DNA of 64,000 bases from Patescibacteria group bacterium. Lineage in GTDB: Bacteria; Patescibacteriota; Patescibacteriia; UM-FILTER-42-10. Below, piece after piece: positions 2,041-50,970 of the stretch. Made by a program: the position numbers and the translations under genes. The number at the start of each line of letters is the position of its first letter. Within the stretch, counting starts at the first letter, position 1. The notes below the pieces were generated by a model that was not told the DNA's origin, did not search any database, and saw only the letters and a program-made list of their open reading frames with translations. The DNA lies in NCBI GenBank assembly GCA_041666485.1, contig JBAYGW010000004.1:10341-74340 (forward strand), written 5' to 3'.

Positions 2041-2050
2041 TGATTATATT

Positions 2051-2641: not shown

Positions 2642-2655
2642 TTACTAATATTATT

Positions 2656-3462: not shown

Positions 3463-3469
3463 ATATACA

Positions 3470-3772: not shown

Positions 3773-3792
3773 ATACACTTTAATATGGAGTA

Positions 3793-3870: not shown

Positions 3871-3901
3871 CCTCCACAGAGAATTAGCATTAAAAACAGT
3901 A

Positions 3902-5227
3902 ATGAAGCAATCGGAAGCGCTGGATATATTGAAAATGGGACACAATGTGTTTCTGACAGGATTTGCCGGCAGCGGCAAAACTTTTTTGTTAAACAAATAT
4001 ATTGAATACCTGAAAGGTAACAATGTAGAAGTAGGCGTAACCGCGTCTACCGGCATTGCGGCCACCCATATGGAAGGCCGGACGATTCATTCGTGGGCGG
4101 GAATGGGGATTAATGACAAAATGACGAAGACGGAGATTAAGAAGATTTTGAAGAAACCGCATCTGCGGAAGCGGATTGCCAATGCGAGGGTTTTGATTAT
4201 AGATGAAATATCCATGCTTGGCCACCGGCAACTGGATCTGGCGGATCAAATCTGCCGGATCGGAAAAGAGCAGGATCTGCCGTTCGGCGGGATGCAGGTG
4301 ATCCTTTCGGGCGATTTCTTTCAACTGCCTCCGATTAACAGAGCTTCCAATGAGGAGCAGAATAAATTTGCTACCGAGTCTGCTGTTTGGCAGGAAATGG
4401 AACTGAAAATTTGTTATCTGGACGAGCAGTTTCGTCAGTCGGATCAGTTATTTACAAAAATTTTAAATGAGATCCGGGATGACCGCGTGACCGCGGATAC
4501 GATCAGCACTCTGATGACCCGCCTGAATATTGAGGTCGCACCGGATGTGATCCCTACCAAGTTGAATACCCACAATGCTGATGTGGACAGCATTAATGAG
4601 CGGGAACTTGCTAAGATTCAGAGCAAAGAAGTTCTGTTTGAGATGAATGCGACCGGTTCTCCCGAGATTGTAAAAATTTTAAAGAAGGGGTGTCTCGCAC
4701 CGGAGGAGATAATATTAAAACAAGGCGCGGTAGTGATGTTTGTAAAAAATAATTTCAACAAAGGATACGTAAACGGGACACTTGGGACTGTAGTAGGTTT
4801 TGATCCGGAAAAGGGGTGGCCGGTGGTGGAGATCCGCTCGGGAAAAAGAATCCTCGCCGAGCCGGAAAGTTGGGGGATTGAAGAAGAGGGAAAAGTAATC
4901 GCGGAAGTGGACCAGGTACCCCTGCGTTTAGCGTGGGCGATCAGCGTGCATAAAAGCCAGGGGATGAGTTTGGAAACCGCGGAGATTGACCTGAGCCGGG
5001 CTTTTGAACGCGGGATGGGTTATGTTGCTTTGTCCCGCGTGCGGACTCTGGACGGCATAAAGCTGACCGGTTTGAATAATATGGCGCTTTCTGTGAACAA
5101 AGATGTGGTGGGGCTGAATAGGGAATTTATCATCCGTTCGCAAATGGATTCGGACCAACTGAAGGGGTTCGGTAAAAAGCGGGTACACAAAATGCAGAAG
5201 GATTTTATAAACGAGGCGCGGGGATAA
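3902..5227 (+). CDS. PIF1-family 5'-3' DNA helicase (RecD/Pif1 superfamily 1)
   Basis: Walker A GFAGSGKT and Walker B LIIDEISML. Pif1 signature GDFFQLPPI. C-terminal motif AISVHKSQGMSLETAEIDL. Confidence 0.85.
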   Translation: MKQSEALDILKMGHNVFLTGFAGSGKTFLLNKYIEYLKGNNVEVGVTASTGIAATHMEGRTIHSWAGMGINDKMTKTEIKKILKKPHLRKRIANARVLIIDEISMLGHRQLDLADQICRIGKEQDLPFGGMQVILSGDFFQLPPINRASNEEQNKFATESAVWQEMELKICYLDEQFRQSDQLFTKILNEIRDDRVTADTISTLMTRLNIEVAPDVIPTKLNTHNADVDSINERELAKIQSKEVLFEMNATGSPEIVKILKKGCLAPEEIILKQGAVVMFVKNNFNKGYVNGTLGTVVGFDPEKGWPVVEIRSGKRILAEPESWGIEEEGKVIAEVDQVPLRLAWAISVHKSQGMSLETAEIDLSRAFERGMGYVALSRVRTLDGIKLTGLNNMALSVNKDVVGLNREFIIRSQMDSDQLKGFGKKRVHKMQKDFINEARG

Positions 5228-5420
5228 ACAACGGTGGATCTCCGGACCAAGTCCGAAGATGACAATTGCTTATTAATTTGTCATTCCCGCGCAGGCGGAA
5301 ATCCAGAAAGGTGACACGGCGGCGTGCCACCCCCTTCTTATTTATGGGTAGGGTTTTTTATTTCTTATTCAAATGGTATAATAACAATTACCAATTTATT
5401 CAATTATTAATCTCAAAAAC

Positions 5421-5987
5421 ATGAAAAAAAATGAAGCTGCCAGAATATATGATGTCAGCAAAAATGAAAGACGACAAGGAGAAATACAGCCTATTCTTCC
5501 GGTAGAAGAACCGGAAGATCCTGATATACTGCCGTCCGCCAAGATGACGTCTATGAATGAATTTGAGCTAGCAGAACAACAGCTCAAAGCTGAAGAAAAG
5601 CGCCAAAAAGAATTGGCGGTTCTGCGCGCTAATATGGCTAATTTTATCAATGAAGCTGGAACGACTGTGATTAATTTTGATAAACCGGGAACTGTACCCG
5701 ATGAAAATTTTGAAGATACTGAAGAGATGGGCCGGATTAATGAAATATTCGGGGTTATTGAACAAAGCGGTTTGGATCAGAGAACAATTGATCTACTGTA
5801 CGAAACTATGGAGAATCTGATTATTGCCATTACACCGGAGCAAATTGACCAGGAAAGAATAGATCAGATAATTGAAGTGATTGAAGCTAGCGAATTAGAG
5901 TCCACTCGTAAGCAAGATTTAATCCTGGAGCTGAAAAACATGATCGCGACAGCAATAATGGATATGGACGATGATGCGGTGGCATAA
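5421..5987 (+). CDS. Hypothetical acidic protein
   Basis: 188-aa ORF, Glu/Asp-rich, with no recognisable motif. Clean start following a T-rich hairpin region after the helicase gene. Confidence 0.5.
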   Translation: MKKNEAARIYDVSKNERRQGEIQPILPVEEPEDPDILPSAKMTSMNEFELAEQQLKAEEKRQKELAVLRANMANFINEAGTTVINFDKPGTVPDENFEDTEEMGRINEIFGVIEQSGLDQRTIDLLYETMENLIIAITPEQIDQERIDQIIEVIEASELESTRKQDLILELKNMIATAIMDMDDDAVA

Positions 5988-6007
5988 ATAATCCACTATA
6001 TAAAATT

Positions 6008-6649
6008 ATGCGTAAAATTCTATTGGCCTCGCGGGGTACTTATGTAACGGACGGAAAGTACGATCTTTTTGATAAACCCCGCAAAGAAATAAAATGGGCT
6101 TACATTACGACAGCCGGAAAAAGCGTGCCGAGAGTTGAATATATTAAAAAACATGAACAGCGGATGCGCGAGCTCGGCTGGGATTTTGAGGAAATTGATA
6201 TTGACGGAAAAACCCCGGATCAGTTAAGGAAAATTTTAGCGGATAAGGATGCAATTAATATGCTGGGCGGCAATTCCTTTTTTCTGATCAAATGCATCAG
6301 AGAAAGCGGATTCAAAGCAGTACTGGAAGAATTTCTAGACAGAGGAGGGGTATATTGCGGTTCCAGCGCCGGGTCATATGTTGCGTGCCCCAGTATGGAA
6401 ATGGCAACCTGGAAAAAACCCGCCAAATTTGACCGCCACGGCGTTACTGATTTTACCGGGATGAATCTGGTGCCGTTTCTGATTGTTGCGCACTGCACGC
6501 CGGAAATTGTTGCAATGGTTAAACCATATGTTGAACAGTCAAAATACGAAGTAAAATTATTAAATGATCAGCAGGCGATTCAGATAAATGGGGATCAGAT
6601 AGAATTTTTGGAAGATCTGGAAATACGATCTAAAGATTTCGGAGGATAA
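6008..6649 (+). CDS. Peptidase S51 family (dipeptidase E-like)
   Basis: GGNSFFL and the nucleophile motif GSSAGS, plus a downstream His (VAHC), match the PepE/cyanophycinase-like S51 layout. Confidence 0.7.
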   Translation: MRKILLASRGTYVTDGKYDLFDKPRKEIKWAYITTAGKSVPRVEYIKKHEQRMRELGWDFEEIDIDGKTPDQLRKILADKDAINMLGGNSFFLIKCIRESGFKAVLEEFLDRGGVYCGSSAGSYVACPSMEMATWKKPAKFDRHGVTDFTGMNLVPFLIVAHCTPEIVAMVKPYVEQSKYEVKLLNDQQAIQINGDQIEFLEDLEIRSKDFGG

Positions 6650-6652
6650 ATT

Positions 6653-7057
6653 ATGACAGACAATAAAGAACCGGAATTAAATCCCTATGACAATGAAGCC
6701 CGCGAGCGGTGGGGTAATACGCAGTTTTATCAGCAGTCCCAAAAGCGTGTAAAAGCGCTGGGAGAGGACGGGTTGGGGGAGGTTATCAGGAAAAGTCAGG
6801 AGCTAATTCAGAAAATTGCCGGTGCGATGAAAAAGGGAAAAACGGCTCAAAGTGAGGCCGTGCAAAAATTAATTGACCGTCATTATAACGCGCTCAATGC
6901 CTTCTATGATCCGACTTTGGGACTATATCGCGGACTGGCTGAAACATATATCAGCGACGAGAGATTTAAGGAAAATTATGAAAAAGTGGCGGTTGGACTG
7001 GCCCAATTTATGCATGATGCCATGATTTATTATGTTGATACAAAGGAAACTGAATGA
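6653..7057 (+). CDS. TipAS antibiotic-recognition domain protein (stand-alone, no MerR HTH)
   Basis: RBS ggagga. [20 protein letters not shown]...[34 protein letters not shown] matches the TipAS-domain signature (ERWG.T..Y..S). Confidence 0.7.
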
Positions 7058-7470
7058 AAGAACTGCAACATATTGAAATAGTATTGAGAGCAATTATTGT
7101 TTTTAATGATAAACTTTTAATGTGCGTTTTACATGATCAACCACCGATTCATTTTTTGCCCGGCGGGCATTTGGAATTCGGTGAAACCTTGGAAGATTGC
7201 CTAAGAAGGGAGATTAAAGAAGAAATGGGTGTTGAAATAAAATCAATGGAATTTTTGAAACAATTTGAAAATATTTATGATGTGCATGGAATAAAACATC
7301 ACGAAATAAATTTGGTACATAAAGTTTCATTAAGCATAGAAAACACGGAAGAAGTAAAAGCACAAGAGGATCATATTTCATTTACTTGGGTTGAAATTGA
7401 AAAGATGAAGGACGTTAAAATGCTGCCGCCAGTGATACATCAATACTTGGTAGAATATTTTTCCAAGTAA
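7054..7470 (+). CDS. NUDIX hydrolase
   Basis: Nudix box [24 protein letters not shown] (Gx5Ex7REUxEExGU). ATGA start overlaps the upstream stop. Confidence 0.8.
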
Positions 7471-7489
7471 TCACAGAACAATTACAGTA

Positions 7490-7606
7490 ACCATTGCGAG
7501 CCCATAAATATGGGCGAAGCAATCCCGATACTTACACCATGAGGGTTTTATAGACGGGATTACCACGCCCCCTGTTTAGAGTCAAAGCGAGCCAGTGTTT
7601 TTTTAA
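7490..7606 (+). repeat. Structured element X, copy 2, followed by an ACGGGATT box
   Basis: aCCATTGCGAG-[cccat aaat atggg]-CGAAGCAATCCCGATaCTTAca...gggttttatagACGGGATTaccacgcc...gagccagtgttttttt. The inner hairpin differs from copy 1 (ttctg/cagaa versus cccat/atggg) but still pairs. Confidence 0.5.
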
Positions 7607-7699
7607 GAGAAGCCTTCGATTCCGCTCCGCTGCACTCAGGCAATATCCCATGAGAATATTTGGTGAGCCTGTCGAATCATACTTGAAAAGAGGTATGGA

Positions 7700-7716
7700 A
7701 CGGGATTGCCACGTCT
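7700..7716 (+). repeat. ACGGGATTRYCACGYC box (third occurrence)
   Basis: acgggattgccacgtct. The consensus occurrences are 3793, 7554, 7700 and 7756 (cgggattgtcacgtc). Confidence 0.45.
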
Positions 7717-7755
7717 TGCGTTCGCAAGTCTCGCAATGGTTACTATCATTCTGTC

Positions 7756-7826
7756 CGGGATTGTCACGTCCCGCTTTGCGTGATTCACAATGGGTGCTGT
7801 TTTTTTATCCTCTCAATGATATAATT
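7756..7826 (+). promoter_or_regulatory. Repeat element Y, copy 2: ACGGGATT box plus conserved promoter-like module. Its TATAAT sits 6 nt before the YgjP ATG, so the transcript is possibly leaderless
   Basis: cgggattgtcacgtcccgctttgcgtgattcacAATGGGtgCTGTTTTTTTATcCtCTCAATGaTATAAT with TATAAT at 7820-7825. ATG at 7832. Confidence 0.5.
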
Positions 7827-7831
7827 CGTGC

Positions 7832-8401
7832 ATGCAAAAGATAATTACTATTGATAATCAGGCACTGACCTACACCGTGCGGAAAAGCCTGCGGGCCAGA
7901 AGTATGCGCCTCGCGGTGCACAGCGACGGCACAGTGGTGGTGACCATGCCTTTCCGGTTTCCCGGCAGTCTGGCGGATAAATTTGTACATGAGAAATATG
8001 ACTGGATTATTCGGAAGATTGCATATTTCAAACAAAGCAAAAAACCCGCATCACGGGTATATACCAAAAAAGATTATTTGAAATACCGGGAAGCCGCAAA
8101 GAAATTTGCACTGGAGCGAGTGGAGCATTTTAATGCAACATATAATTTTACGTATAATCGGATAAGTATCCGCAACCAAAAAACAAGATGGGGGAGTTGT
8201 TCCGGGAAAGGCAATCTGAATTTCAATTATAAAATAATCCATTTACCTTTGCGGATTGCCGACTATATTATTGTCCACGAGTTGTGCCATTTGAAGCAAA
8301 TGAATCATTCTAAAAATTTCTGGGATTTAGTGGGAGTATTCTTTTCGGACCACAAGGCAATCAGAAAAGAATTAAAGCGGTTGAGTATTGATCTGGGCTA
8401 G
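7832..8401 (+). CDS. YgjP-like metal-dependent hydrolase (DUF45 / M48-like, HExxH)
   Basis: WGSCSGKGNLNFNYKIIHLP...IIVHELCHLKQMNHSKNFWDLV is the DUF45/YgjP signature. Confidence 0.8.
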   Translation: MQKIITIDNQALTYTVRKSLRARSMRLAVHSDGTVVVTMPFRFPGSLADKFVHEKYDWIIRKIAYFKQSKKPASRVYTKKDYLKYREAAKKFALERVEHFNATYNFTYNRISIRNQKTRWGSCSGKGNLNFNYKIIHLPLRIADYIIVHELCHLKQMNHSKNFWDLVGVFFSDHKAIRKELKRLSIDLG

Positions 8402-8455
8402 AGGCTTTTATTTAAATTTGGTATAATAGAACTATAATTAATAATCATTATATTT

Positions 8456-9019
8456 ATGAATGAAAGTATAAAATATCCGCATGCAGCGGAAGAAGGAGTA
8501 ACCCCGGAAATGGATCAGGCCCGAAAACTGGGGTTATTAGAACCTATGGAGGATACGCTGGAATGGTTGGATATTAAGGCAGATATTCATCTCAAATACA
8601 ATGACAAAAAAGCCAGACAGCTAGAAGAGCAAACGCAATCTGATTATTTAATTGCAAAAGAAAAGGATGATGTGGGTAATTTGCAGGATCCGCATGAGAG
8701 ACCAAATCTTGAATCAAAATTTGCTATTGATACAGGACTGGTGGAAGCAAGAAGGTTGCGTGAAGCAAATAACACAATGGAAAAAGAAATCGCCGACATG
8801 CTTCTAGGTCATGATTTTGAACAGTTTCGCACACCAAACCAAGCACAATTACAGGCTATTCGTGAAGCACTTCACGTCGCCTATCAGCAAGATCCAGAGA
8901 TCAATGATCGGATAAAGGCGAAAGAACGCATCAGAGAAATTATTGCATTAGAAAAACAGTTAGCTGAATTGCTTGTAATTTTTGGACAAGAGGTGCAGGA
9001 TGTTGTCAGTAGACAATAA
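8456..9019 (+). CDS. Hypothetical protein
   Basis: 187-aa ORF with host-like composition and no recognisable motif. Confidence 0.45.
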   Translation: MNESIKYPHAAEEGVTPEMDQARKLGLLEPMEDTLEWLDIKADIHLKYNDKKARQLEEQTQSDYLIAKEKDDVGNLQDPHERPNLESKFAIDTGLVEARRLREANNTMEKEIADMLLGHDFEQFRTPNQAQLQAIREALHVAYQQDPEINDRIKAKERIREIIALEKQLAELLVIFGQEVQDVVSRQ

Positions 9020-9153
9020 TAATTTAGTGATATGAATTACGTCCAACCCCCCCCTAACCCCCCTCCTTAGGAAGGAGAGGGGGTGCGGTTCGCAAGGAAT
9101 AGGGAAGTGTTTAGTTCCTCTCCTTTTTAAGGGGAGGATTTAGGAGGCGTAAT

Positions 9154-9195
9154 AAAAAAATACCGCCGGGCTCTCAGAGGAGAGGGGCGGTTTTC
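9154..9195 (-). terminator. Intrinsic terminator for the minus-strand gene 9223-10125 (possibly bidirectional)
   Basis: The sequence aaaaaaataCCGCCgggctctcagaggagagGGGCGGttttcgg reads on the minus strand as a GC-rich hairpin followed by a T7 run. Confidence 0.55.
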
Positions 9196-9222
9196 GGATT
9201 GCCTACAGAGTAGGCGAAGGTG

Positions 9223-10125
9223 CTATTCCAAACGCTCTTGGAGCGGGTCAAAGTCCGAGTAGAGCGCGAGCAGGAAATCAATCATGTCGGCTCCGAAATC
9301 CTCGTCGGATACGGCGTACTGCTCAATCGTGAGCATGTTGGCGCTCACAACCAAGTCGGTTCCGTAGAAGCCGACATCAAGCGGAGATTCAATCGGAACG
9401 CATTTGCGTATCCGATCTTCGTCATCGGTCAACGGACCCATCGTGTAGGCGTAGGGTTCATGACCTTCCGCAACGGTGATCTGCTGGCGCTGCAAAGCGC
9501 TTTCGCGAGTGGCGGCGAGCCACTTCCCTTCGGTCATCTCGTTGATGATCATGAACACCGCATGGTGTGCCTCGTACTCCTCAAGGAGCCACGGGTCGGA
9601 AAGCGGTTCCGTAACCGTTCCCTCTTCGTCGTAGTCGTTCTCCGTGCAGTCCCGGGCGTGGACGATTTCATGTGCGAGGCAGAGCCCGCGCACGAGCTGT
9701 CCGAAACCGCAGGTTGTGAGCTTCACCGAACGCGATTCGCAGAAGAATTCCGCGAAAATCGCATCTTCCTCCCGAAGGAGCGGAATCGGATTCGGATCCG
9801 CCACGATGAAGAAGTCTAGCGGACTGTCCAGTGTTTCCACCACCTCAAAGAGCTGGGAATCAACGAACTTCGCACGCACGGCATGCGCGTCGTAGAACTC
9901 CAGGAGCTCCTTGGCGGTTGCCGACTGCTCGGCGAGTGCCGCGAGGTCTTCCCGCGCCGTGTCAAGAATCCGGTTCTCGGGCTCGGTCAGCACAGGTAGA
10001 GCCAGTGCGGAGGAGACGGGCTCCTCCTGAGACTGAGCAGGGACACAGTAGGCGAAGGCGCACAGGGTGGGAATGAGGGACAGGTACAAAGCGACCTTAT
10101 GCCACGTACGCATGAGCGGTTCCAT
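9223..10125 (-). CDS. Secreted protein with HExxH...E zinc-binding-like motif (putative metalloprotein/peptidase), high-GC island
   Basis: Signal peptide MRTWHKVALYLSLIPTLCAFAYCVPAQSQ. Motifs CLAHEIVHARDC and, ~30 aa downstream, LLEEYEAHH. Codon usage is ~60% GC, unlike the flanks. The overlapping plus-strand ORFs are antisense artefacts. Confidence 0.55.
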   Translation of the reverse strand: MEPLMRTWHKVALYLSLIPTLCAFAYCVPAQSQEEPVSSALALPVLTEPENRILDTAREDLAALAEQSATAKELLEFYDAHAVRAKFVDSQLFEVVETLDSPLDFFIVADPNPIPLLREEDAIFAEFFCESRSVKLTTCGFGQLVRGLCLAHEIVHARDCTENDYDEEGTVTEPLSDPWLLEEYEAHHAVFMIINEMTEGKWLAATRESALQRQQITVAEGHEPYAYTMGPLTDDEDRIRKCVPIESPLDVGFYGTDLVVSANMLTIEQYAVSDEDFGADMIDFLLALYSDFDPLQERLE

Positions 10126-10390
10126 CCTTTCGGGTCTTCCTAGTCTTTTCTTTGGTTGCTGTGTGAAAATTGTGCCTGTACTACGATCCTCGGTCAGAAA
10201 CCTGCAAATCTCCTTTCAACAGGAATTCTGACTACACTGTATAACATGATATTATATTTTTGTCCAGAGTGGTTAAAGATAATTAATCATTCGCGAATTA
10301 AAAATGTATATAAATCTTGCAAAAAACTGCTGTTATGCTAGGGTTGCGATAGTCGTGAGTTATTTGATGCCTGCAGAAAGGACGGATGCT

Positions 10391-10612
10391 ATGAGTCATC
10401 GGTTCACTCCAGCCCGCCTCAACGAGGTATTGGTTGCTGCCAATGCTTCGCGCCAGCCGGAAGCGGTTGAAGCGACAACTCTGCTGCGGGACTTCATGGA
10501 GCGCGAAGATCTGATCGGCTCCGATGAAACCGACCGGCATGTGCATGTGCCGGAAGACCTGGTCGGCATCATTGAATACCCCTGGAACGGGCATTCCCAG
10601 TCGGCTCTCTAG
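10391..10612 (+). CDS. Small hypothetical protein (start uncertain)
   Basis: gaaaggacggatgctATG gives an RBS-like sequence. Followed by two hairpins and a T-run (10619-10668). It competes with antisense ORF 10298-10642, which has no such signals. Confidence 0.3.
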   Translation: MSHRFTPARLNEVLVAANASRQPEAVEATTLLRDFMEREDLIGSDETDRHVHVPEDLVGIIEYPWNGHSQSAL

Positions 10613-10641
10613 TACATCTGCGGTTCCCAGAAACCGCGCCA

Positions 10642-10668
10642 CTCTTTCCTGACTGAAAGAGTTTTTTA
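10642..10668 (+). terminator. Intrinsic terminator
   Basis: ctctttc-ctgactg-aaagag followed by ttttttattt. Preceded by a second hairpin, gcggtt-cccagaa-accgc. Confidence 0.5.
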
Positions 10669-10688
10669 TTTAAAACATTATGACAATT

Positions 10689-10726
10689 AAAAAAATCGAG
10701 GGTGAGTCCGGATGGGCTCACTCTCG
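10689..10726 (-). terminator. Intrinsic terminator for minus-strand gene 10802-11344
   Basis: aaaaaaaTCGAGGGTGAGTCCggaTGGGCTCACTCTCG forms a 12-bp stem with a T-run on the minus strand. It shares the AAAAAAATCGAGGG.GAG head with the terminator at 13003. Confidence 0.55.
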
Positions 10727-10801
10727 GGTTAAAGGAATGATCAGATGATGAAAAGCAGAAGGTGTGGTGCAACAGTGGACGCGCGGGATCGCGGGTCAGG
10801 A

Positions 10802-11344
10802 TCAGAGGTCGATGCGCTCAGTCGGAGCGTCACCGCCCTGATCGTCCGCAGCGGGAGCAGTCGCCTCCATGGCCTGCCCGGTCTCGGCACCAGCGGCAGC
10901 CTGGTCGCCGGCCGCGACAACGGCCGGGTCCACCTCGGGAGCGGCGTTGACATCCGCAGCGGCGGCCACGACGGGAGCCTCCACGCTGGCGGCAGCGAGC
11001 GGGGTCGCATCCGTCCCATCCTCGTCACCGAGCTGGGGATTGCCGACGGTTGCGGCGGCCTGATGCTCGGCGTGAGCCTCGTCCTCGTCCTCGGGCACGT
11101 CCTCCCAGGGCACGTCCTCGGGGATCAGCAGGGTGCCGATCATGAGGTCGCCTTCGGCGATGAGGTCGTAGAGACCGACTTTGGCCACCGTCGGCTCCCC
11201 CTCGTCGGACAGGCCGAGGATCACGATCAGGTGCTGGTTCTCGTCGTACTGGATCCCTCTCGCCTTGAGGGTCTCCAGGACGGGGGTGCCTTCCTCCCCC
11301 TCGAACAGCGGATGGAGACGGAGGCAGGGTTTTGTTCTTGACAT
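10802..11344 (-). CDS. Hypothetical acidic protein with an Ala/Asp/Glu-rich low-complexity C-terminus
   Basis: RBS AAGGAG lies 8 nt before ATG (MSRTKPCLRLHPLFEGEEG...). The ordered N-domain (...HLIVILGLSDEGEPTVAKVGLYDLIAEGDLMIGTLLIPEDVPWEDV) is weakly reminiscent of DUF1292-type small acidic proteins. The overlapping 198-aa plus-strand ORF is rejected. Confidence 0.5.
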   Translation of the reverse strand: MSRTKPCLRLHPLFEGEEGTPVLETLKARGIQYDENQHLIVILGLSDEGEPTVAKVGLYDLIAEGDLMIGTLLIPEDVPWEDVPEDEDEAHAEHQAAATVGNPQLGDEDGTDATPLAAASVEAPVVAAAADVNAAPEVDPAVVAAGDQAAAGAETGQAMEATAPAADDQGGDAPTERIDL

Positions 11345-11490
11345 CGCACACACTCCTTCTTGGGAACGGGACCATAATTTGCCGACGGCTTATCCGCCAG
11401 CAGCGAACATGTCAGATGTTATCACGCCTTTTTGTCTATGTCAAAATGCCTTTCAAACTGTGGATTTACAGACGGCTGCTAATCCTTTAT

Positions 11491-11508
11491 GCGGTTTTTG
11501 AAAACCGC
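11491..11508. promoter_or_regulatory. Perfect inverted repeat GCGGTTTT-tg-AAAACCGC in a divergent intergenic region (candidate operator)
   Basis: gcggtttttgaaaaccgc has 8-bp arms and a 2-nt spacer. It lies between the start of the minus gene at 11344 and the promoter of the plus gene at 11578. Confidence 0.4.
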
Positions 11509-11577
11509 AATTAATTTATTCTCACTGAGGAGAGTTTATTTATTGCAAAAAAATAAAATAATGCTTTGTATTTATAG

Positions 11578-11606
11578 TTGACATTCTATAATCATGGGTG
11601 TTAAAT
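11578..11606 (+). promoter_or_regulatory. Sigma70-like promoter for gene 11660
   Basis: TTGACA (11578-11583), then a 17-nt spacer, then tgTTAAAT with an extended-10 TG. RBS aaaggggg lies 8 nt before ATG 11660. Confidence 0.45.
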
Positions 11607-11659
11607 GGGCATGAAAACCAAAACACGAAACCGTTGCTCTTTGAAAGGGGGTGACCACC

Positions 11660-12085
11660 ATGCTAGCAGTCTTTCAAATTGAACCGGGCGCATTGTTCGG
11701 GATAATACTAGTGGCTGTAATAGCAGCAATCGGAATTTGGGTACAAGTTGATGCTGCTACTGCAAAAACCCGGCAAGAAGAGGAATTCAAAGAACAAAGG
11801 AGATTAGCAAAAGAGAAAAAAAATCAGGAATACAGAGAGGGGTCGGCTCGCGAGGAACAATCAGATGAGGAAAGGTACAGGCAAAAACAAGTAAGCGATG
11901 AAGAACGTGATCGGGAAATGCGACCAATACTGGAAGCTGCTATAGCAAGAGGGGAAAAGGTTTGTTGGACACATTATATTGTTGGTGTCCAATATTGCAA
12001 TAGGGGGTGTGGTCGTTGTCTTTGTCTCGAAGGTGGCCCAATGTGTGATCAGTGTTGGTTTGATGATCATGACGACGATGACTAG
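11660..12085 (+). CDS. Small membrane-anchored protein with a charged linker and a Cys-rich, poly-Asp C-terminus
   Basis: TM helix FGIILVAVIAAIGIW. Linker QEEEFKEQRRLAKEKK...DEERDRE. Tail CWTHYIVGVQYCNRGCGRCLCLEGGPMCDQCWFDDHDDDD with 8 Cys in 31 aa. Confidence 0.5.
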   Translation: MLAVFQIEPGALFGIILVAVIAAIGIWVQVDAATAKTRQEEEFKEQRRLAKEKKNQEYREGSAREEQSDEERYRQKQVSDEERDREMRPILEAAIARGEKVCWTHYIVGVQYCNRGCGRCLCLEGGPMCDQCWFDDHDDDD

Positions 12086-12173
12086 TTCGTTCAAGACTCT
12101 TTAGTTTAGAGTCTTTTTTATCGAATTGTTAATTATATTTCACCTGAATAATAAATTGTGCTACGATTAAGCT

Positions 12174-12905
12174 ATGAATTTAGCAGAGAAATTGGAGTTG
12201 TACTTCTTTGACCCAATGAGAGGGGAGGAGGACTATTTTAAACGGTTCAAAGAGTGCACCGATATTCAGATTTCCTACGCGCCGCTGTATTTATTACGCC
12301 GGCAGATATTATTGTTGACCGGCAAACTGATTACATTTCCCAACCCGCCCATTCATCAGATTCCGTATTTTTCCGCCATTCTCCTGGCACACATTGCGGT
12401 AAAAAAAATGACTATGCTGTCCAGCGGTCAGGACTACGTTAAGTACGGCGATTATATTTTGTTTTATGATAAATACATGGGCATGAAGCCGCTGGATTAT
12501 GTGGCGGCCAGACTTCTGCGTAATGGAATAGAACACAATAATTTCCAGTTGTATATGCGTCTGAAAGCGGACAGCGCACCAATGTTCCGCGAGTTCGCCC
12601 GATATTTTATTAATAATAAAATTATGACCCGTGAGCAGCTGAGGTCTATGCGCAATTTTAACGTAACGTTTGCGATGGTGGAAACAGGTCACACTGGCGC
12701 GATTGTTTCTCCACCGGAACTGTTAAAATTTGATCCGGAGCTGGGTATCGCACGGATCCAGTTCTATATTCAGCCATATCTATTTTTGGAAGCATTTGAA
12801 AAGGGGGTGCAGAAAGTGGAACAAGATATCCGTGATTCAAAAGAATTGAAAGAGAATTTTGACCGTGCTGTGATTGAAGCAAACTGGATGGATGTGCATC
12901 CGTAA
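12174..12905 (+). CDS. Hypothetical protein
   Basis: 243-aa ORF, ~42% GC, with no recognisable motif. Confidence 0.45.
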   Translation: MNLAEKLELYFFDPMRGEEDYFKRFKECTDIQISYAPLYLLRRQILLLTGKLITFPNPPIHQIPYFSAILLAHIAVKKMTMLSSGQDYVKYGDYILFYDKYMGMKPLDYVAARLLRNGIEHNNFQLYMRLKADSAPMFREFARYFINNKIMTREQLRSMRNFNVTFAMVETGHTGAIVSPPELLKFDPELGIARIQFYIQPYLFLEAFEKGVQKVEQDIRDSKELKENFDRAVIEANWMDVHP

Positions 12906-13002
12906 TCGGTACTTAAAAAGTGTAATTAGTAATTGGTAACTGGTAATTCGTAATCTCTAATATTCATCTGAATTGATGTGTGTTTTTGTTTTAGGAAAAT
13001 AA

Positions 13003-13054
13003 AAAAAATCGAGGGGGAGAGAACAATGCTTGCGCAATGTTTCTCCCGCCTCGG
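13003..13054 (-). terminator. Intrinsic terminator for the OMP/lipoprotein operon (minus strand)
   Basis: aaaaaaaaTCGAGGGGGAGagaacaatgcttgcgcaatgtttCTCCCGCCTCG is a long imperfect hairpin with a T8 run on the minus strand, immediately downstream of the stop at 13092. Confidence 0.5.
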
Positions 13055-13091
13055 GGTGACCCCGCTAAGCGGGATCTAGGAACGACTAGTG

Positions 13092-15197
13092 CTATTCGGC
13101 CGGATTGTACGTGGTACTTTCCAGACGAACGACGGGGATTTCATCGTAGGCTGAGGGGACTTCGTAGCATCCCATCAGCTTCTGCATGTACACCCAGCCG
13201 GTGCACTTGTTGGCGTCGCCGGTCCAGACGATACGAATCTCCTGGATATTCTCAAGATCGGCTTCACCGAAGTCCACCAGCAGGTAGGCCGGACGCTGCG
13301 GGTACAGATCCGGGATCGTCCAGTAACGAACGGAGCCGTTAGTGTACCGGAACTCCATGATCGTGTCCTCGTGCTGGAGGACATCAAACTTGAACAGTCC
13401 CCACATCCGCTGCCAGTAGGGGTGACCGGTCGTCACGAACGCGCAGTCCGTGAGATCGCCCGGTCCCACCTTGAAGTCGTTGATGTCAACTTCCCAGCAG
13501 ATGGTCTCCGGATCCGAAGCGGACCGGACGCGGATGTTGATTTCGCGTTGCTGAACTTCGCCGGTGACGTTGTCCGTCACCTCAACGTAGAACAGGTGAT
13601 TACCCGCGTTCAGCTCAGGATACTCGCAGACCGGGGTGGTCGCGAACGGAAACTGCTCCAGGTAACCCCACTTCACCGAGTTATCGCCGGAGCCACCCTG
13701 GATGATCACCTGGAGGCTCGCGGTCACAGGTTCCACTTCGTCCTGCGGACTGCCGAAGATCTGGGTGGTCATCGGCGGGTACTGCAGTGCTTTCACGCGG
13801 ATGGCGACGTCCTCGTTCAGAACGAGACCGGTGACGTTGTCCGTCACCTGCACGTGGAACACGTGTACGCCGGCCATCAGACCCATCACTTCAACTGCCG
13901 GAGTGGTGCCGACGACGACGTTACTGTCGTTGGTCCACTCGTAGCTGAAGTCGCCCGAACCGTTATTCACGGTCACCAGCATATTGCCGTTCACCGGCTC
14001 GGTCTCGTCCTGCGGGGTAACGAAGGTTGTGATACCCATCGGGATGATGGGATCGTCCTCGCGGGGCAGAGCGGTGACGGTAACGGTTTGCTGTCTCACC
14101 TGGCCGGTTGCGTCGGTGACGGTGGCCTGGAAACAGCGGGTGCCGGGCTGGGTGATACTGAGACGCACACTGCGTGTGGTTGCGAAGACGTTGCCGTTCT
14201 CGCTCCACACGTGCACGAAGGGGTAGATCCCTCCGAACTCGTGCATGGTCAGCGTGGTCTCAAACGAAACCGGGATCCCACTCGTGGAAGCAGTCGCATC
14301 CATGTCGAGCGGAGTCGGATCGTCCGTGTCCACATACACCGTCAAGTCCTGGAAGGTGGAGCCGTTGCCGGTGCCATCGTCCAAGAAAACGGTAAAGGTA
14401 TGTGTGCCGTCGGGGAGATTCGGGTATGCGGCGAACAGACTCTGCGAGAACATAACGCCCTCGTAGAACCACCGGTAATGGTAGTTTCCGTCACCGCCGG
14501 ACCCGTGCGCTTCCAGATAGGCTTTGTCGCCGATCGCGAAGCCGAAGGCATCCAGCGTCAGAGCGTGGAGTTCCCCAGGAGCGCCGGCACAGATGGTACG
14601 GTTGAAGGTGACTTCGTTGCCGTCGGCATCGGTGATCGTGCCGACCACTGCGTAGTTTCCCGGCTGTTCGGCCCGGAACCGGATGGACGGTTCGGTGTAC
14701 ACCGCACCGTTCACGATGATGTCAAACGAGTAGGGCAGTTTCCCACCCCAGCCGATGAGCGAGATTGACGCTTCGTAAGGCGCCATCAGGTCGTTCGGTG
14801 TGACGATCATCATACCCTGAAGCGGGCTGTCGGTTTCCACTTCCTGCTCGCTGGCCGTGACGGTCAGCTCGCGGGAGATGGTGGTGTCCGGGTAGACGAC
14901 CTTGAGCTCGAAGCTCCAGGAGCCGGGTTCGGGCGCCGTGAACACAGTGTCCGTTCCGGTAGCGTAGAACTGCCCATCCTTGTAGATTGCGACGTGTTCC
15001 GGATCGCCAAGCACGGTTCCCCAGAGGGTAGCCGTATCGACGTAGGGCCGAAACAGGTTGAGCGGTGAGGCGTTGAACGTCGCGCCGAATTCCGGAAGCA
15101 CAGGTGCCTGCGGCGCCACCAGATCAGCCTCGCTCTCGCAACCAGCGAGTACGAGGCCGAAGGCGCAGATCGCAAGCAAAGCGATGATTCTCTTCAT
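13092..15197 (-). CDS. Large lipoprotein with repeated Ig-like/PKD-like beta-sandwich domains (high-GC island)
   Basis: RBS AGGAGG lies 6 nt before ATG. Lipoprotein signal MKRIIALLAICAFGLVLAGC (lipobox LAGC). Internal repeats are visible, e.g. FVTPQDETEPVNGNMLVTVNNGSGDFSYEW and FGSPQDEVEPVTASLQVIIQGGSGDNSVKW. The 465-aa antisense ORF 13371-14768 is rejected. Confidence 0.7.
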   Translation of the reverse strand: MKRIIALLAICAFGLVLAGCESEADLVAPQAPVLPEFGATFNASPLNLFRPYVDTATLWGTVLGDPEHVAIYKDGQFYATGTDTVFTAPEPGSWSFELKVVYPDTTISRELTVTASEQEVETDSPLQGMMIVTPNDLMAPYEASISLIGWGGKLPYSFDIIVNGAVYTEPSIRFRAEQPGNYAVVGTITDADGNEVTFNRTICAGAPGELHALTLDAFGFAIGDKAYLEAHGSGGDGNYHYRWFYEGVMFSQSLFAAYPNLPDGTHTFTVFLDDGTGNGSTFQDLTVYVDTDDPTPLDMDATASTSGIPVSFETTLTMHEFGGIYPFVHVWSENGNVFATTRSVRLSITQPGTRCFQATVTDATGQVRQQTVTVTALPREDDPIIPMGITTFVTPQDETEPVNGNMLVTVNNGSGDFSYEWTNDSNVVVGTTPAVEVMGLMAGVHVFHVQVTDNVTGLVLNEDVAIRVKALQYPPMTTQIFGSPQDEVEPVTASLQVIIQGGSGDNSVKWGYLEQFPFATTPVCEYPELNAGNHLFYVEVTDNVTGEVQQREINIRVRSASDPETICWEVDINDFKVGPGDLTDCAFVTTGHPYWQRMWGLFKFDVLQHEDTIMEFRYTNGSVRYWTIPDLYPQRPAYLLVDFGEADLENIQEIRIVWTGDANKCTGWVYMQKLMGCYEVPSAYDEIPVVRLESTTYNPAE

Positions 15198-15206
15198 CTT
15201 GACCTC

Positions 15207-16274
15207 CTACATACCGAAGTTGTAGTTGACGCCGGCGGCGATGGAAGGCTCGACCGAGCGATCCGTGCCGAGGCGATCGAAGAACATGAGACCGGGCGTG
15301 ATGTAGCCCAGGACGTGTCCCTTGGTGATCGCGAACCCTCCGTAAAGGCCGTAGCCGTTTTGGAGGTATTCGCCGAACGTCTCCACGCATTCGGAAGCGT
15401 AGAGGATCCGTGCCGTCAGACCGAACCACGGCTTATTCCCGTAGAAATGCGCCATGTTCAGGCTGAACAGCTTCTGCTCGACCGACTGCTCGACTGAGCC
15501 GAGATGCTCAGAGCCGAAACTGCCGTAGCCGAGAGTGCCCGAGATGAAGTTGCGTCCGCTCCGAATCCCGAAGGAAACGGATGGGACCAACGTGGGCTGG
15601 CCGCTTGATACGGTAACCCATTCCGCTCCGAACCCGAGCATGTAGCTCTTGTCGGAATTGGTCGGGTGAACCGGGTGAACACAGGGCGCCGGCCGCTCAA
15701 CGATGCGTTCGGTGACGATGCGTTCAACGACGACTCGTTCGGTCGACTTCGTCGGCAGCTTGTCCACGTAGATGTGGATGTAGCGGTCGCCGATGCGCTG
15801 GGAGCGGATGTGGAAGTAGTCAATCGGGACCTTGAACGGGTCCACACCGACGTACTCTAGCACCTGGTTGGCCGAAGCCTCCCGGGCGCCGTTCGTTCCT
15901 CCATCCCAGTCCAGATTCTGGGCATCAAAGTCAATGTCCTTGAACCTGGGGTCGTCCTTGAAGATCTCCAGGATTCCGTACTTCGTGGGGTCCGTGCAAC
16001 AGACCACCACGAGACGCTTGTTCCCGGCGCGGACGCTGTCCAGTTCGGTCCGGAACTCCGGCGTGACCAGCGGAAGAACCTCTTCCTTGGTCACCAGATG
16101 CCCGGGCTTTCCCTTCCCGAGCTGGATGAAGATGCCGCGATCCCGAGGGATCACGGTGTGGTCGGGCTGGTCCGCCTGCGCGATGCTCGATTCTGCGACC
16201 AGCATCAGCACGGCGATGAGAAACACGGTGATTTTCCTCACTACTCTCTCCTTCAGTTGTGCTGTCATATCCAT
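15207..16274 (-). CDS. Secreted protein with a C-terminal outer-membrane beta-barrel-like domain (co-transcribed with the lipoprotein)
   Basis: Signal peptide ...RKITVFLIAVLMLVAESSIAQA. The start could be ATG 16274, ATG 16268 or GTG after AAGGAG. The C-terminal ~150 aa shows an alternating hydrophobic pattern with Gly/aromatic-rich strands (GFGAEWVTVS...LGYGSFGS...YGLYGGFAIT...VNYNFGM), typical of OMP beta-barrels. The stop overlaps the RBS of the downstream lipoprotein gene. Confidence 0.55.
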   Translation of the reverse strand: MDMTAQLKERVVRKITVFLIAVLMLVAESSIAQADQPDHTVIPRDRGIFIQLGKGKPGHLVTKEEVLPLVTPEFRTELDSVRAGNKRLVVVCCTDPTKYGILEIFKDDPRFKDIDFDAQNLDWDGGTNGAREASANQVLEYVGVDPFKVPIDYFHIRSQRIGDRYIHIYVDKLPTKSTERVVVERIVTERIVERPAPCVHPVHPTNSDKSYMLGFGAEWVTVSSGQPTLVPSVSFGIRSGRNFISGTLGYGSFGSEHLGSVEQSVEQKLFSLNMAHFYGNKPWFGLTARILYASECVETFGEYLQNGYGLYGGFAITKGHVLGYITPGLMFFDRLGTDRSVEPSIAAGVNYNFGM

Positions 16275-16556
16275 TATGACAGCGGGTGAAACCTCGAACG
16301 GGAACCAAACAAAACCAAAAACCACGTGAAACGACAGATTTTCAAATAGCACCTCTCCTAAAGATGAAACATCTCAGTAGAGGGGAATAAGGACATTTAC
16401 AAACATCCTGATTCCTCCCTTCTAACATGCAAAAAGCGTGGATTTATAGGTGAAATTATCCACTAAATATTATTTGAATTTATAAAGTATTTTTTCTGAT
16501 ATTACCACCTGATAGTAAATAATTACGACTGACTACTATATGCTTATTTAATCGTT

Positions 16557-16586
16557 TTGTCAAGAGCGAGTGTTTACTGCTACAAT
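16557..16586 (+). promoter_or_regulatory. Sigma70-like promoter upstream of the ECF sigma gene
   Basis: TTGTCA (16557-16562), then an 18-nt spacer, then TACAAT (16581-16586), about 36 nt before ATG 16622. Confidence 0.45.
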
Positions 16587-16621
16587 GAAATAATACTAAT
16601 TAATAATGCGTAGTAATCACA

Positions 16622-17206
16622 ATGGCTGTCATCAGAGACTGTAGTCAAAAATCAGATGAGGAGTTGGTTGCCTTAACACTTTCTGATCAAGGGTGGTATT
16701 TGTGTTTGATGCAAAGGTATGAGGCAAAATTGACCCGGTTTATCCGGCGCATCTCAGGGGTTAATGATCAGGATTTGGAAGACATTTTACAGGATGTATT
16801 CATTAAAGTGTATCGTAACCTGAACAGTTTTGATCTGGATCTGAAATTTTCTTCCTGGATTTACCGTATATGCAGAAACCATGTCATCAGTCATTACCGC
16901 AAAGTACAAAGCCGTCCGGAACTAATCGGCGGTGATGACGGAGAATTGATTTTGAATCAAATAAAAGATGACAGTGATCCGCACGCTTTGATTGACGAAG
17001 TATTGTCTAACGAAAAAATTCAGTCGGTGCTTTCCAAAATGGATAAAAAATATCAGGAAGTAATTATTCTGAAATATTTGGAAGACAAGGATTATCAGGA
17101 AATAGCGGATATTTTAAAAAAACCGGTCGGCACGGTCGGTACGCTTTTAAGCAGAGCAAAAGAACAATTTAAAACAATTACTCAAAAACAAGGAACCGAA
17201 TTTTAA
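16622..17206 (+). CDS. ECF-type RNA polymerase sigma-70 family factor
   Basis: Region 2: DILQDVFIKVYRNLNSFDLDLKFSSWIYRICRNHVISHYRK. Region 4 HTH: YQEIADILKKPVGTVGTLLSRAKEQFK. Confidence 0.85.
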   Translation: MAVIRDCSQKSDEELVALTLSDQGWYLCLMQRYEAKLTRFIRRISGVNDQDLEDILQDVFIKVYRNLNSFDLDLKFSSWIYRICRNHVISHYRKVQSRPELIGGDDGELILNQIKDDSDPHALIDEVLSNEKIQSVLSKMDKKYQEVIILKYLEDKDYQEIADILKKPVGTVGTLLSRAKEQFKTITQKQGTEF

Positions 17207-17207
17207 T

Positions 17208-17963
17208 ATGGAAGACACATCAAAACAAGTATTGGCAAAAATTGAAAAGGAAAAAATCACCCCGAAGCCGAAATGGCAATTCAGGCTAGAGCAGATTGGT
17301 ATTTGGTTTCTGGCTATTATTTCTGTATTAATCGGCAGTAATGCCTTTTCGCTGATTATCTTCGCTATGGTGAATAATGACTGGGAAGTGCTGGAACTGC
17401 TGGATAGAAATCCTGTTAGTCACACACTGGCAACTATCCCGTACCTTTGGCTGGTTGTTTTGGCTCTGTTTGTTCTGCTGGCATATTATAATACCCGCCA
17501 TACCAACAAAGGTTACCGTTACAGTACGTACGGCATTGTAATCGGCAGTATTGCCGCAAGCATGTTGGTCGGCACAGTATTATACTCAGTTGGTTTTGCG
17601 CCGGGCGTGGATCGTCTGATCAGGGGGGTACCGGGTATAAATATGCTGATGCATGATCGCGAGGAGATTTGGAGCCATCCAGAAAATGGATTTATGGCCG
17701 GTGAAATAATTAATGTAAAAAATAACACCAGTGAGTTTGAAATAATAGATTTGAACGATGAGGAATGGATAGTGAATGCCAACAATGCAGTCATTTTCCC
17801 CTCCGTTATAATAGAAAATGGTGAATTAGTAAGAATTATCGGACAGGTGCAGGATGATAAATATATATTTGAGGCTCAGCGTATTCTGCCTTGGCAGGTT
17901 GGTCCATCGTCTGGCGGGGTTTTCGGTGGCGGCATGCATCAGGGCTTTATCCAAGTGAAATAA
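17208..17963 (+). CDS. Polytopic membrane protein, candidate anti-sigma factor (translationally coupled to the ECF sigma gene)
   Basis: Starts 1 nt after the sigma stop (taatATG). Cytoplasmic N-terminus of ~25 aa, then at least 4 TM helices and a C-terminal extracytoplasmic domain. The call is positional. Confidence 0.45.
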   Translation: MEDTSKQVLAKIEKEKITPKPKWQFRLEQIGIWFLAIISVLIGSNAFSLIIFAMVNNDWEVLELLDRNPVSHTLATIPYLWLVVLALFVLLAYYNTRHTNKGYRYSTYGIVIGSIAASMLVGTVLYSVGFAPGVDRLIRGVPGINMLMHDREEIWSHPENGFMAGEIINVKNNTSEFEIIDLNDEEWIVNANNAVIFPSVIIENGELVRIIGQVQDDKYIFEAQRILPWQVGPSSGGVFGGGMHQGFIQVK

Positions 17964-18034
17964 ATTATTATACTGATACGTAGTAACAGTTGAAAGGTCG
18001 AACATTACAAATTAAAGAAAGGGACAAGTTAGGC

Positions 18035-50966: not shown

Positions 50967-50970
50967 TTTT

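Follow-up and report, generated by a model that had tools for sequence, protein, structure and literature searches.

Highly expressed S-layer genes, such as slpA of Lactobacillus, are characterized by an extreme codon bias, strong promoters, and long stabilizing 5' leaders. Classical genomic islands of the kind called by IslandViewer-type methods are recognized by a shift in GC content, in GC content at third codon positions (GC3), and in tetranucleotide usage, with sharp boundaries, a variable neighborhood, and orphan and surface-related proteins. Here, we analyze a 64,000-nucleotide stretch of DNA from a Patescibacteria group bacterium (assembly GCA_041666485.1, contig JBAYGW010000004.1, positions 10,341 to 74,340; hereafter the window), in which GC-rich genes lie between about 9.2 and 16.3 kb. 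The core of this region is a two-gene operon that encodes a secreted protein of 355 residues (353 as called) and a lipoprotein of 701 residues. The original prediction, made from the sequence alone, had described a horizontally acquired or chimerically assembled island whose donor possessed an outer membrane; the composition anomaly is real, chimerism and recent horizontal transfer are rejected, and the outer-membrane inference is unsupported. The anomaly is a property of individual genes, and the operon is old, vertically inherited, and actively maintained in its GC-rich coding. The explanation toward which we lean, with moderate confidence, is that the GC-rich coding is held by selection on the coding sequence or its mRNA that is linked to expression.

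At 1-kb resolution, the GC content of the window is 27-49% except at 9-11 kb (0.54-0.56) and 13-16 kb (0.58-0.61). In 200-nucleotide windows it is 0.55-0.74 at 9.2-11.35 kb and 13.05-16.3 kb, against approximately 0.40 in the flanks, and the enrichment is divided into blocks at 9.2-10.15, 10.4-10.6, 10.75-11.35 (up to 0.74), and 13.05-16.3 kb, which are separated by spacers with a GC content of 0.30-0.40 and by a 1.6-kb host-like stretch at 11.4-13.0 kb. The windowed check therefore bears out the elevated GC, GC3, and tetranucleotide scores of the "seven-kilobase high-GC island" first described, but not its unity as a single block, as the 11.4-13.0-kb stretch and the promoter-bearing spacers are host-like. 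By gene, GC3 is 0.72 (296 residues), 0.58 (a 102-residue open reading frame, ORF), 0.81 (180 residues), 0.33 (141 residues), 0.51 (243 residues), 0.78 (701 residues), and 0.80 (353 residues), whereas the 53 other genes of the window have a mean of 0.378, a standard deviation of 0.072, and a maximum of 0.56. Relative to these 53 genes, the four main GC-rich genes (296, 180, 701, and 353 residues) lie at z = 4.8-6.0 in GC3, and the tetranucleotide distance of the GC-rich genes reaches z-scores of up to 15. The region is thus a mosaic in which four GC-rich ORFs and one milder one stand among spacers of host type and the two genes of host type at 11.4-13.0 kb. The GC-rich genes are atypical at all three codon positions, and their amino-acid make-up is enriched in glycine, alanine, arginine, and proline (GARP). 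This whole-gene signature is a point for a single ancient acquisition by the ancestor of the clade, from a donor that was GC-rich and possibly diderm, followed by passive and incomplete amelioration, a history that we consider unlikely, though deserving of serious weight.

An antisense frame rich in GC had also been pointed out in this segment. The 465-residue ORF at 13371-14768 is present but is not a gene: its codons are in exact register with those of the lipoprotein gene, its start is congruent with the third codon positions of that gene, and it is free of stops because TTA, CTA, and TCA, the only possible opposites of stop codons, are nearly unused in the lipoprotein gene. It was rejected as an in-register shadow frame for which codon usage accounts. 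The opposite extreme of composition in the window is found in two AT-rich kilobases, 2001-3000 (GC 0.28) and 50001-51000 (GC 0.27). Three more small GC-rich genes are located 1.5-4.7 kb to the left of the window start, at L021:1448-4630 (L021 coordinate x corresponds to window x - 6099). They encode 167, 133, and 77 residues (GC3 0.79, 0.73, and 0.60), with ATA almost absent and host-type neighbors, and the GC-rich gene class is scattered, with approximately 8 of 70 genes in 80 kb.

The GC enrichment ends exactly at the ORF ends. Divergent, promoter-bearing spacers within the region have a GC content of 0.34-0.40, with 0.27 in one short spacer, and host intergenic DNA stands at 0.334; convergent spacers are higher in GC only because of terminator hairpins. 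The leader of the operon has a GC content of 0.337 in the window and of 0.31-0.38 across all seven copies. Spacers and leader that are fully host-like, next to synonymous sites that are not, speak against an ancient import that merely fades. They also bear on elevated local recombination with GC-biased gene conversion, or repeated allele replacement from a GC-rich family pool, either of which we find rather doubtful as the source of the anomaly: conversion tracts should ignore start codons, yet the enrichment stops at the ORF ends while the adjacent leader has 34% GC.

A sharp composition change, a metagenome-assembled source, and orphan proteins would all suit a recent strain-specific transfer or a chimeric metagenome assembly, to which the evidence leaves next to no credence. 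The host is a metagenome-assembled genome (MAG) of Patescibacteria/Paceibacterota, within the Candidate Phyla Radiation (CPR); the 353-residue protein is annotated by NCBI to a Patescibacteria MAG (WCT33_01605, on a contig of 75.7 kb), and its relatives come from Patescibacteria/Paceibacterota MAGs. Both flanks carry chromosomal functions identified with Pfam, namely the Pif1 helicase, S51 peptidase, TipAS, NUDIX, and YgjP on the left, and an extracytoplasmic function (ECF) sigma factor, CorA, HtrA, glycosyltransferases, MetK, AdoHcyase, and MurA on the right. An ENA MEGAHIT contig (ERZ27249449, k141_327959) spans window positions 3092-17871 with 1 mismatch in 14,780 bases (99.99%), both junctions included, and identical host proteins were found again in two further samples. 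With both junctions reproduced in an independent assembly and synteny kept in other species, chimerism is excluded at the level of assembly comparison. Hallmarks of a recent island were likewise not found: the window contains no tRNA genes and no significant flanking repeats, and searches of Pfam and PHROGs detected no phage or mobile-element families among the island proteins. The lack of mobility genes, tRNA genes, and att repeats in the window also counts against an ancient import. A terminal inverted repeat at the outer edges of the GC-rich region (9218-9232/16340-16354; 15 nucleotides, 13/15 matching) was rejected, being one of nine chance-level pairs, with its two ends unlinked in lineage L012.

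The same locus is found in relatives. In L004/L003, a different species sequenced in another project (126.5-kb contig), the gene order from Pif1 to HtrA and the GC mosaic are the same as in the window, at an amino-acid identity of 79-88%; BLAST detects orthologs of six of the seven island genes in L004 (75-95% identity), while the Cys-rich 141-residue gene is matched only by a positional 150-residue ORF. The two-gene operon diverges from the same ECF sigma/anti-sigma pair in L006, L007, L008/L012 (1.18-Mb contig), and L014, so the core operon stands beside this pair in five of five close lineages with a readable locus, or six including the window. Only the 180- and 141-residue genes are lineage-restricted. 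Several related genomes therefore carry the island, or its core, in the same position, an outcome that the original prediction had itself named as contrary to recent transfer. With the full mosaic kept in a different species from a different project and the operon locus in four further lineages, a recent strain-specific acquisition is rejected.

In every lineage, the operon has a GC3 of 0.58-0.80 against 0.17-0.48 in its flanks. In L012, the gene for the HExxH-type protein (GC3 0.76) and its small neighbor (0.63) lie approximately 4.5 kb from the operon (0.77/0.75), and the intervening 4.5 kb consist of host-type genes with a GC3 of 0.34-0.48; this separation indicates that the GC-rich genes are separate islets. 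Remote copies of the gene pair occur in other genomic contexts in L017 (38% identity) and L019 (approximately 24-27% identity, flank GC 0.29-0.31) and are also GC-rich, with a GC3 of 0.58-0.64. In L017, a type IV pilin (N_methyl) gene of GC3 0.77 and a DHH phosphoesterase gene of GC3 0.61 (L017:1422-3070; flanks 0.42-0.44) precede the operon.

The interval between the operon and YgjP is variable in the lineages that show it whole (L007, L012, and L014), and an IS200/IS605 transposase is found in this neighborhood in L014, both of which are compatible with an ancient import. A plasticity zone (L012:12274-15970, L014:11972-18931, L007:13369-18914, L006:5619-8193) carries patchily distributed genes, all absent from the window, that include an RND transporter, a conjugative-type type IV secretion system pilin, a methyltransferase, an MFS fragment, an IS200/IS605 Y1 transposase, and an ABC/FtsX pair. 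A homology search of the lipoprotein and barrel protein, proposed originally as the way to a donor, identified none: homologs from named non-CPR lineages were absent in searches of 5.8 billion and 1.84 billion proteins, which argues against an import. All close homologs with a named source are from Patescibacteria, and the other matches are only PKD-domain similarities of approximately 23-28% in Bacteroidota. No GC-rich donor pool for allele replacement was detected. A profile scan of metagenome loci returned only the already known loci, a profile search of 5.8 billion proteins returned nothing new, and literature searches found no description of this operon or of CPR genes that are kept GC-rich.

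The island genes are under purifying selection, with ratios of nonsynonymous to synonymous divergence (dN/dS) of 0.17-0.30, against 0.02-0.24 in the flanks; individual values are 0.21 (296 residues), 0.19 (73 residues), 0.23 (701 residues), and 0.17 (355 residues). Synonymous divergence (dS) between orthologous island genes is 0.3-0.57, which dates them back to the species split and again opposes a recent arrival. To compare histories, retained identity was defined at four-fold degenerate sites of identical residues as the observed identity in excess of the expectation from composition, that is, the share of sites keeping the ancestral base. Between the window and L004 it is 0.55 for the operon and 0.48 for the flanks; the corresponding values are 0.38 and 0.23 for L012, 0.12 and 0.12 for L014, and 0.13 and 0.05 for L007, and the operon alone gives 0.06 for L017 and 0.04 for L019. 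The HExxH gene pair gives values similar to the operon (0.57 and 0.12). At four-fold sites the distance ranking of the lineages is alike for operon and flanks, and this co-divergence implies vertical inheritance with no repeated import within the syntenic clade. Synonymous divergence that follows the flanks counts against allele replacement; in its favor, the lipoprotein identities are star-like (79/77/76%) where those of the flanks are tree-like, and the surface proteins of the operon evolve fast.

Four-fold sites are near saturation between the deeper lineages, while GC content at these sites (GC4) is 0.59-0.82 in the operon and 0.24-0.51 in the flanks. The memory of an ancestral composition along one lineage is at most the square root of the retained identity, by the Cauchy-Schwarz inequality, which holds under rate heterogeneity; for the window and L007 this is sqrt(0.13) = 0.36. 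Starting from an ancestor with 100% GC4 and taking the flank composition at four-fold sites (0.50 for the window, 0.24 for L007) as the neutral equilibrium under a simple substitution model, neutral decay would leave a GC4 of at most 0.68 in the window and 0.51 in L007. The observed values are 0.82 and 0.60. Passive retention of imported DNA is therefore insufficient, and some force keeps the coding sequence GC-rich. In polarized parsimony counts (outgroup L008), GC sites changed to AT at a rate of 0.139 per site in the operon, compared with 0.21-0.25 in the flanks. The operon thus loses GC at only about 60% of the rate seen in its flanks, again unfavorable to an import in passive decay, whereas the AT-to-GC rates are equal (0.21 versus 0.19-0.21). 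The implied equilibrium GC3 is approximately 0.6 for the operon and 0.43-0.49 for the flanks, and the operon stays approximately 0.3-0.45 above its flanks in GC3 even where synonymous sites are saturated. The operon is, in sum, old, vertically inherited, and actively kept GC-rich. An AT-to-GC rate that is not raised counts against gene conversion; the many synonymous changes between G and C (34 in the operon versus 0-3 in the flanks) count for it. In the more AT-rich hosts (L007 and L019) the operon has a lower GC3, which is what incomplete amelioration of an import would leave. An ancient foreign origin is possible, but the present composition neither requires it nor is sufficiently explained by it.

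The form of the codon preference fits selection on translation or mRNA better than regional mutation or gene conversion. Preferred codons include TAC (0.95), TTC (0.86), ATC (0.84), AAC (0.78), CAG (0.91), and AAG (0.81), ATA is used at 0.01, and A-ending codons amount to 8%. In all lineages, ATA makes up 0-5% of isoleucine codons against 14-52% in the flanks, and in the close clade 72-81% of two-fold pyrimidine-ending (NNY) codons end in C against 22-30% in the flanks. Both the avoidance of ATA and the preference for C in NNY codons persist even where GC at four-fold sites falls to 0.62. The architecture of the operon, judged from its sequence, also appears suited to strong expression, with a promoter matching 11 of 12 positions, a long conserved leader, AGGAGG, and a terminator of -30 kcal/mol, and counts in favor of selection linked to expression. 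In a survey of groundwater Patescibacteria, ribosomal proteins, tuf, and groS were overrepresented in islands called from composition (PMC12455944). Such a pattern would arise if highly expressed genes in these genomes had an atypical codon usage, and it lends indirect support to the same explanation.

Several observations weigh against it. Weak codon selection is the expectation for CPR bacteria. G-ending lysine, glutamine, and glutamate codons are also favored (0.61-0.70), and GC content at the first and second codon positions is raised, neither of which classical translational selection predicts in an AT-rich genome. An Akashi-type comparison of conserved with variable sites gave a weak result, with odds ratios of 1.2-1.6 and one p < 0.05 for the lipoprotein gene and no signal for the 353-residue gene. 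No ribosomal-protein or tRNA genes by which optimal codons could be calibrated occur in the window or its 6-kb left extension. The polarized counts are net GC-to-AT (66 versus 29), which fits some ongoing decay and the import that would be decaying, and the decay bound depends on its choice of neutral equilibrium and its simple substitution model. Finally, inspection by eye of the first 60 residues encoded by the GC-rich genes to the left of the window showed no evident signal peptide, and the label of surface protein thus fails to cover the whole class.

The downstream gene of the operon (13092..15197, minus strand) encodes the 701-residue lipoprotein, which consists of a signal peptide, a lipobox, six tandem immunoglobulin (Ig)-like/PKD domains, and a C-terminal domain of approximately 140 residues; the gene contains an internal 267-nucleotide repeat. 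The LAGC lipobox first reported is present and reads VLAGC, with G19 and C20 invariant in seven lineages. The protein matches the Pfam family K319L-like_PKD with 30.3 bits against a 27-bit cut-off, and this PKD domain is the only match above threshold for any island protein in Pfam, NCBIfam, PHROGs, and PDB sequences. An AlphaFold2 model has a predicted local distance difference test (pLDDT) score of 70-90 over residues 35-560, with all-beta strands arranged in approximately six beta-sandwich domains, and leaves the C-terminal 140 or so residues without a resolved fold. Foldseek searches with this model gave 291 PDB matches at E <= 1e-3 to generic Ig-domain arrays, which include the GhpA grappling hook, adhesion molecules, and the S-layer proteins EA1 and SbsB.

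The upstream gene (15207..16274, minus strand) encodes the 355-residue protein. Its signal peptide and conserved N-terminal domain are joined by a linker of ER(I/V)V repeats to a beta-rich C-terminal portion of approximately 150 residues that ends in NYNFGM. This portion is rich in glycine and aromatic residues and shows about eight alternating strands, counted by eye rather than computed. The family has 19 members among 1.84 billion representative proteins, mostly on short contigs, and all members with a named source are from Patescibacteria; a remote member also has a lipoprotein of approximately 700 residues downstream. The C-terminal portion (15207-15830) of the window and L004 is unrelated to that of L006, L008, L014, and L007, even though the N-terminal part is 83% identical to that of L006. 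Two unrelated C-terminal versions among close lineages indicate a domain swap within the family, an exchange that gives some support to the doubtful alternative of gene conversion or allele replacement.

The description of this protein as similar to an outer-membrane protein (OMP) barrel finds no support in searches of Pfam, NCBIfam, and PDB sequences. The isolated C-terminal domain has no Pfam match at E <= 1, the full-length protein has no NCBIfam match at E <= 0.1, and the family profile has no PDB match at E <= 10 except one spurious hit. AlphaFold2, with an alignment of six sequences, gave a model with a pLDDT of 39, too low for use, that indicated beta-strand propensity only. The protein ends in NYNFGM in the window, NYNFGL in L004, TWRLK or TRRLK in the other close lineages, and ...TLNF or ...TWGW in remote members; an aromatic-terminal beta-signal is thus lacking in the window clade, and the remote ends in F or W, which resemble OMP beta-signals, are a point for import from a diderm. 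Outer-membrane biogenesis proteins number 0 among approximately 37 window proteins scanned against Pfam (about 80 kb of genome). Lipoproteins occur in monoderms too. CPR bacteria have been placed in a monoderm clade (10.1101/2021.05.31.446380). The argument that a barrel and a lipoprotein imply an outer membrane in the donor is consequently unsupported, since the barrel is unverified, monoderms have lipoproteins, the family members with a named source are all from Patescibacteria, and the searches identified no donor lineage. From its sequence, the beta-rich C-terminal domain is possibly an anchor.

Transcription of the operon is predicted to start from a sigma-70-type promoter, TTGACA-N17-TATAGT (16563-16535, minus strand), which matches 11 of 12 positions and is conserved in six lineages. 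The AT-rich leader of approximately 290 nucleotides (16275..16563, minus strand) includes this promoter, a conserved hairpin (16450-16375, minus strand; -20 kcal/mol, z = -2.8), the element AGGAGAGG, and an upstream ORF that starts with GTG (MLFEN..., from 16352, minus strand). The upstream ORF is preceded by AGGAGAGG and its 5' end is conserved in four lineages, while its frame varies: in the window and L012 it continues in frame into the main gene, whereas in L004 it ends in an overlap, TAATG. A conserved 9-bp hairpin, GCUGUCAUA/UAUGACAGC (16261..16283, minus strand), holds the start codon in its loop and folds at -10 to -13 kcal/mol in five lineages, with G-U pairs and compensatory changes. 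Together, the upstream ORF and the start-codon hairpin look like a device for translational coupling or control. As Rfam has no match in the whole window, the conserved leader falls outside the known RNA families. Between the two genes, the classical AGGAGG ribosome-binding site is present as reported (15203..15208, minus strand), 6 nucleotides before the ATG of the lipoprotein gene and overlapping the stop codon of the 355-residue gene. The operon ends at a strong intrinsic terminator (13003..13054, minus strand; -30 kcal/mol, z = -5.4), followed by T8.

The divergent ECF sigma factor gene (16622-17206, plus strand; Pfam Sigma70_r2 and r4_2) has its own sigma-W-like motif, TGAAAT-N17-CGTA (16586-16612, plus strand), which is invariant across lineages and ends 9 nucleotides before the sigma ATG, implying a near-leaderless transcript. 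This motif has 5 matches in the window against 1.4 expected and is repeated at 17956-17982 (plus strand), just before a conserved gene for a secreted protein of 166-181 residues. The adjacent membrane protein (17208-17963, plus strand) is a putative anti-sigma factor by its position and transmembrane segment only. Control of the operon by the ECF sigma factor was rejected, as the ECF-type motif is missing from the operon promoter, which has TTGACA-N17-TATAGT.

The remaining genes of the region lie to the left. The secreted protein of 296 residues (9223..10113, minus strand) begins with a signal peptide, and orthologs of it occur in L004 and L012; it had been described as an HExxH...E protein. 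Its motif reads HEIVH both in the window and in L004, whereas L012 has HGIAH, with glycine in place of the catalytic glutamate; its score for Peptidase_M13, 15.9 bits, is below the 24.5-bit cut-off, and NCBIfam and PDB gave no match. A reading as a zincin metalloprotease is therefore unsupported, with the glutamate not conserved in an ortholog and no peptidase family matched. A conserved small protein of 73 residues (10391..10612, plus strand), read at first as a 102-residue ORF from 10304, has orthologs of 72-73 residues in L004 and L012 and a GC3 of approximately 0.58-0.8 among orthologs. The acidic, Ala-rich protein of 180 residues (10802..11344, minus strand; GC 0.69) occurs only in the window and L004 lineages and has no family match in Pfam, NCBIfam, or PHROGs; by such sequence comparisons, it and the 73-residue protein are orphans. 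The two genes of host-type composition encode a single-pass membrane protein of 141 residues with a Cys-rich C-terminus (11660..12085, plus strand) and a conserved hypothetical protein of 243 residues (12174..12905, plus strand) that is 95% identical in L004 and L012.

Three hairpin-plus-T-run terminators are genuine, all reading the minus strand. Besides that of the operon, they serve the 296-residue gene (9150..9190, minus strand; -17 kcal/mol, z = -3.7) and the 180-residue gene (10689..10726, minus strand; -15.6 kcal/mol, z = -4.8, then T7), and the shared terminator head AAAAAATCGAGGG occurs, as predicted, at exactly two sites. At the left junction, a hairpin cluster of C-runs and G-runs (9035..9140, plus strand) lies downstream of a host gene of 187 residues and folds at -43 kcal/mol, with a z-score of only -1.9. 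Elsewhere in the window, a stand-alone gene for the TipAS antibiotic-recognition domain (6653-7057, plus strand) has no MerR DNA-binding part and no counterpart in L004, and two ORFs of 502 and 998 residues in a region of glycosylation genes (38275-39783, plus strand, and 40053-43049, minus strand) have no Pfam match at E <= 1e-5.

Taken as a whole, the region is, on this explanation, a variable surface-protein neighborhood of a Paceibacterota chromosome rather than one foreign island, in which a few genes with an extreme preference for GC-ending, and especially C-ending, codons are embedded in ordinary AT-rich regulatory DNA. The proposed core unit runs from the sigma-70-type promoter through the leader of approximately 290 nucleotides, the 355-residue protein, AGGAGG, and the lipoprotein to the strong terminator. 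The most likely reason for its GC-rich coding would be that abundant envelope or host-attachment proteins have to be expressed at a high level or under special regulation. We infer that the pair forms a lipid-anchored, Ig-domain surface structure at the envelope or the host interface: the lipid anchor would hold the lipoprotein at the cytoplasmic membrane with the Ig-domain stalk projecting outward, and the 355-residue partner would act with it at the cell surface.

A bolder extension, which we regard as a long shot, is that the operon, the HExxH gene pair, and the nearby small genes belong to a dispersed, vertically inherited class of CPR genes under a selected, codon-biased program of translation. 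Such a program might be tuned to the tRNA pool or to wobble modifications, for example queuosine salvaged by the symbiont, and the attachment or envelope proteins might then be made at a high level or only in a particular host-dependent state. Linked to this is the possibility that the 355-residue partner is an OMP-type beta-barrel native to a monoderm phylum and inserted, for instance, into the outer membrane of the host.

The setting is a group of tiny, AT-rich groundwater bacteria in which certain genes have stayed GC-rich, in one chromosomal position, over a long evolutionary time. A method based on composition would classify this region, and perhaps approximately 10% of such genomes, as horizontally acquired, a verdict that is wrong or at best incomplete here; if the case is general, estimates of horizontal gene transfer for CPR/Patescibacteria would be inflated, and selection or another directional force on synonymous sites would be unexpectedly strong in ultra-small symbionts in which codon selection is thought to be weak. 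Of the cell-surface or host-attachment apparatus of Paceibacterota almost nothing else is known, and the operon, conserved and specific to its clade, is a candidate for it; the 355-residue partner raises the question of beta-barrel-like proteins in a monoderm phylum.

Compared with known systems, the region has every outward sign of a classical genomic island that was listed at the outset, from the compositional shift and sharp boundaries to the variable neighborhood and the orphan and surface-related proteins. It differs in that no integrase, transposase, tRNA gene, or flanking repeat was found in the window, the anomaly is one of single genes, and the core is kept at one locus in six close lineages including the window, co-diverges with its flanks, and does not relax in composition toward the host. 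The 355-residue protein resembles OmpX, the OmpA membrane domain, OMP_b-brl, and the OmpM tethers of diderm Terrabacteria in its Gly/aromatic-rich C-terminus and in the beta-signal-like ends of remote members, but unlike small 8-stranded OMP barrels it has no family or PDB match and a non-aromatic terminus, and its host phylum is regarded as monoderm. With Ig-like/PKD adhesins and surface fibers, such as GhpA of Aureispira (PDB 9flw), the lipoprotein shares tandem beta-sandwiches, with a Foldseek E of 1e-16 to GhpA fragments; the match is one of generic fold at approximately 14% identity, however, and the lipoprotein is much shorter, lipid-anchored, and always paired with the 355-residue partner. 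The likeness to S-layer genes such as slpA extends to a near-consensus promoter, a structured leader, a strong ribosome-binding site and terminator, codon bias, and an Ig-like array. In contrast to those genes, the bias of the operon is toward G and C in an AT-rich genome, G-ending two-fold codons included, and Pfam found no SLH or other S-layer anchoring domain, the lipobox providing the anchor instead.

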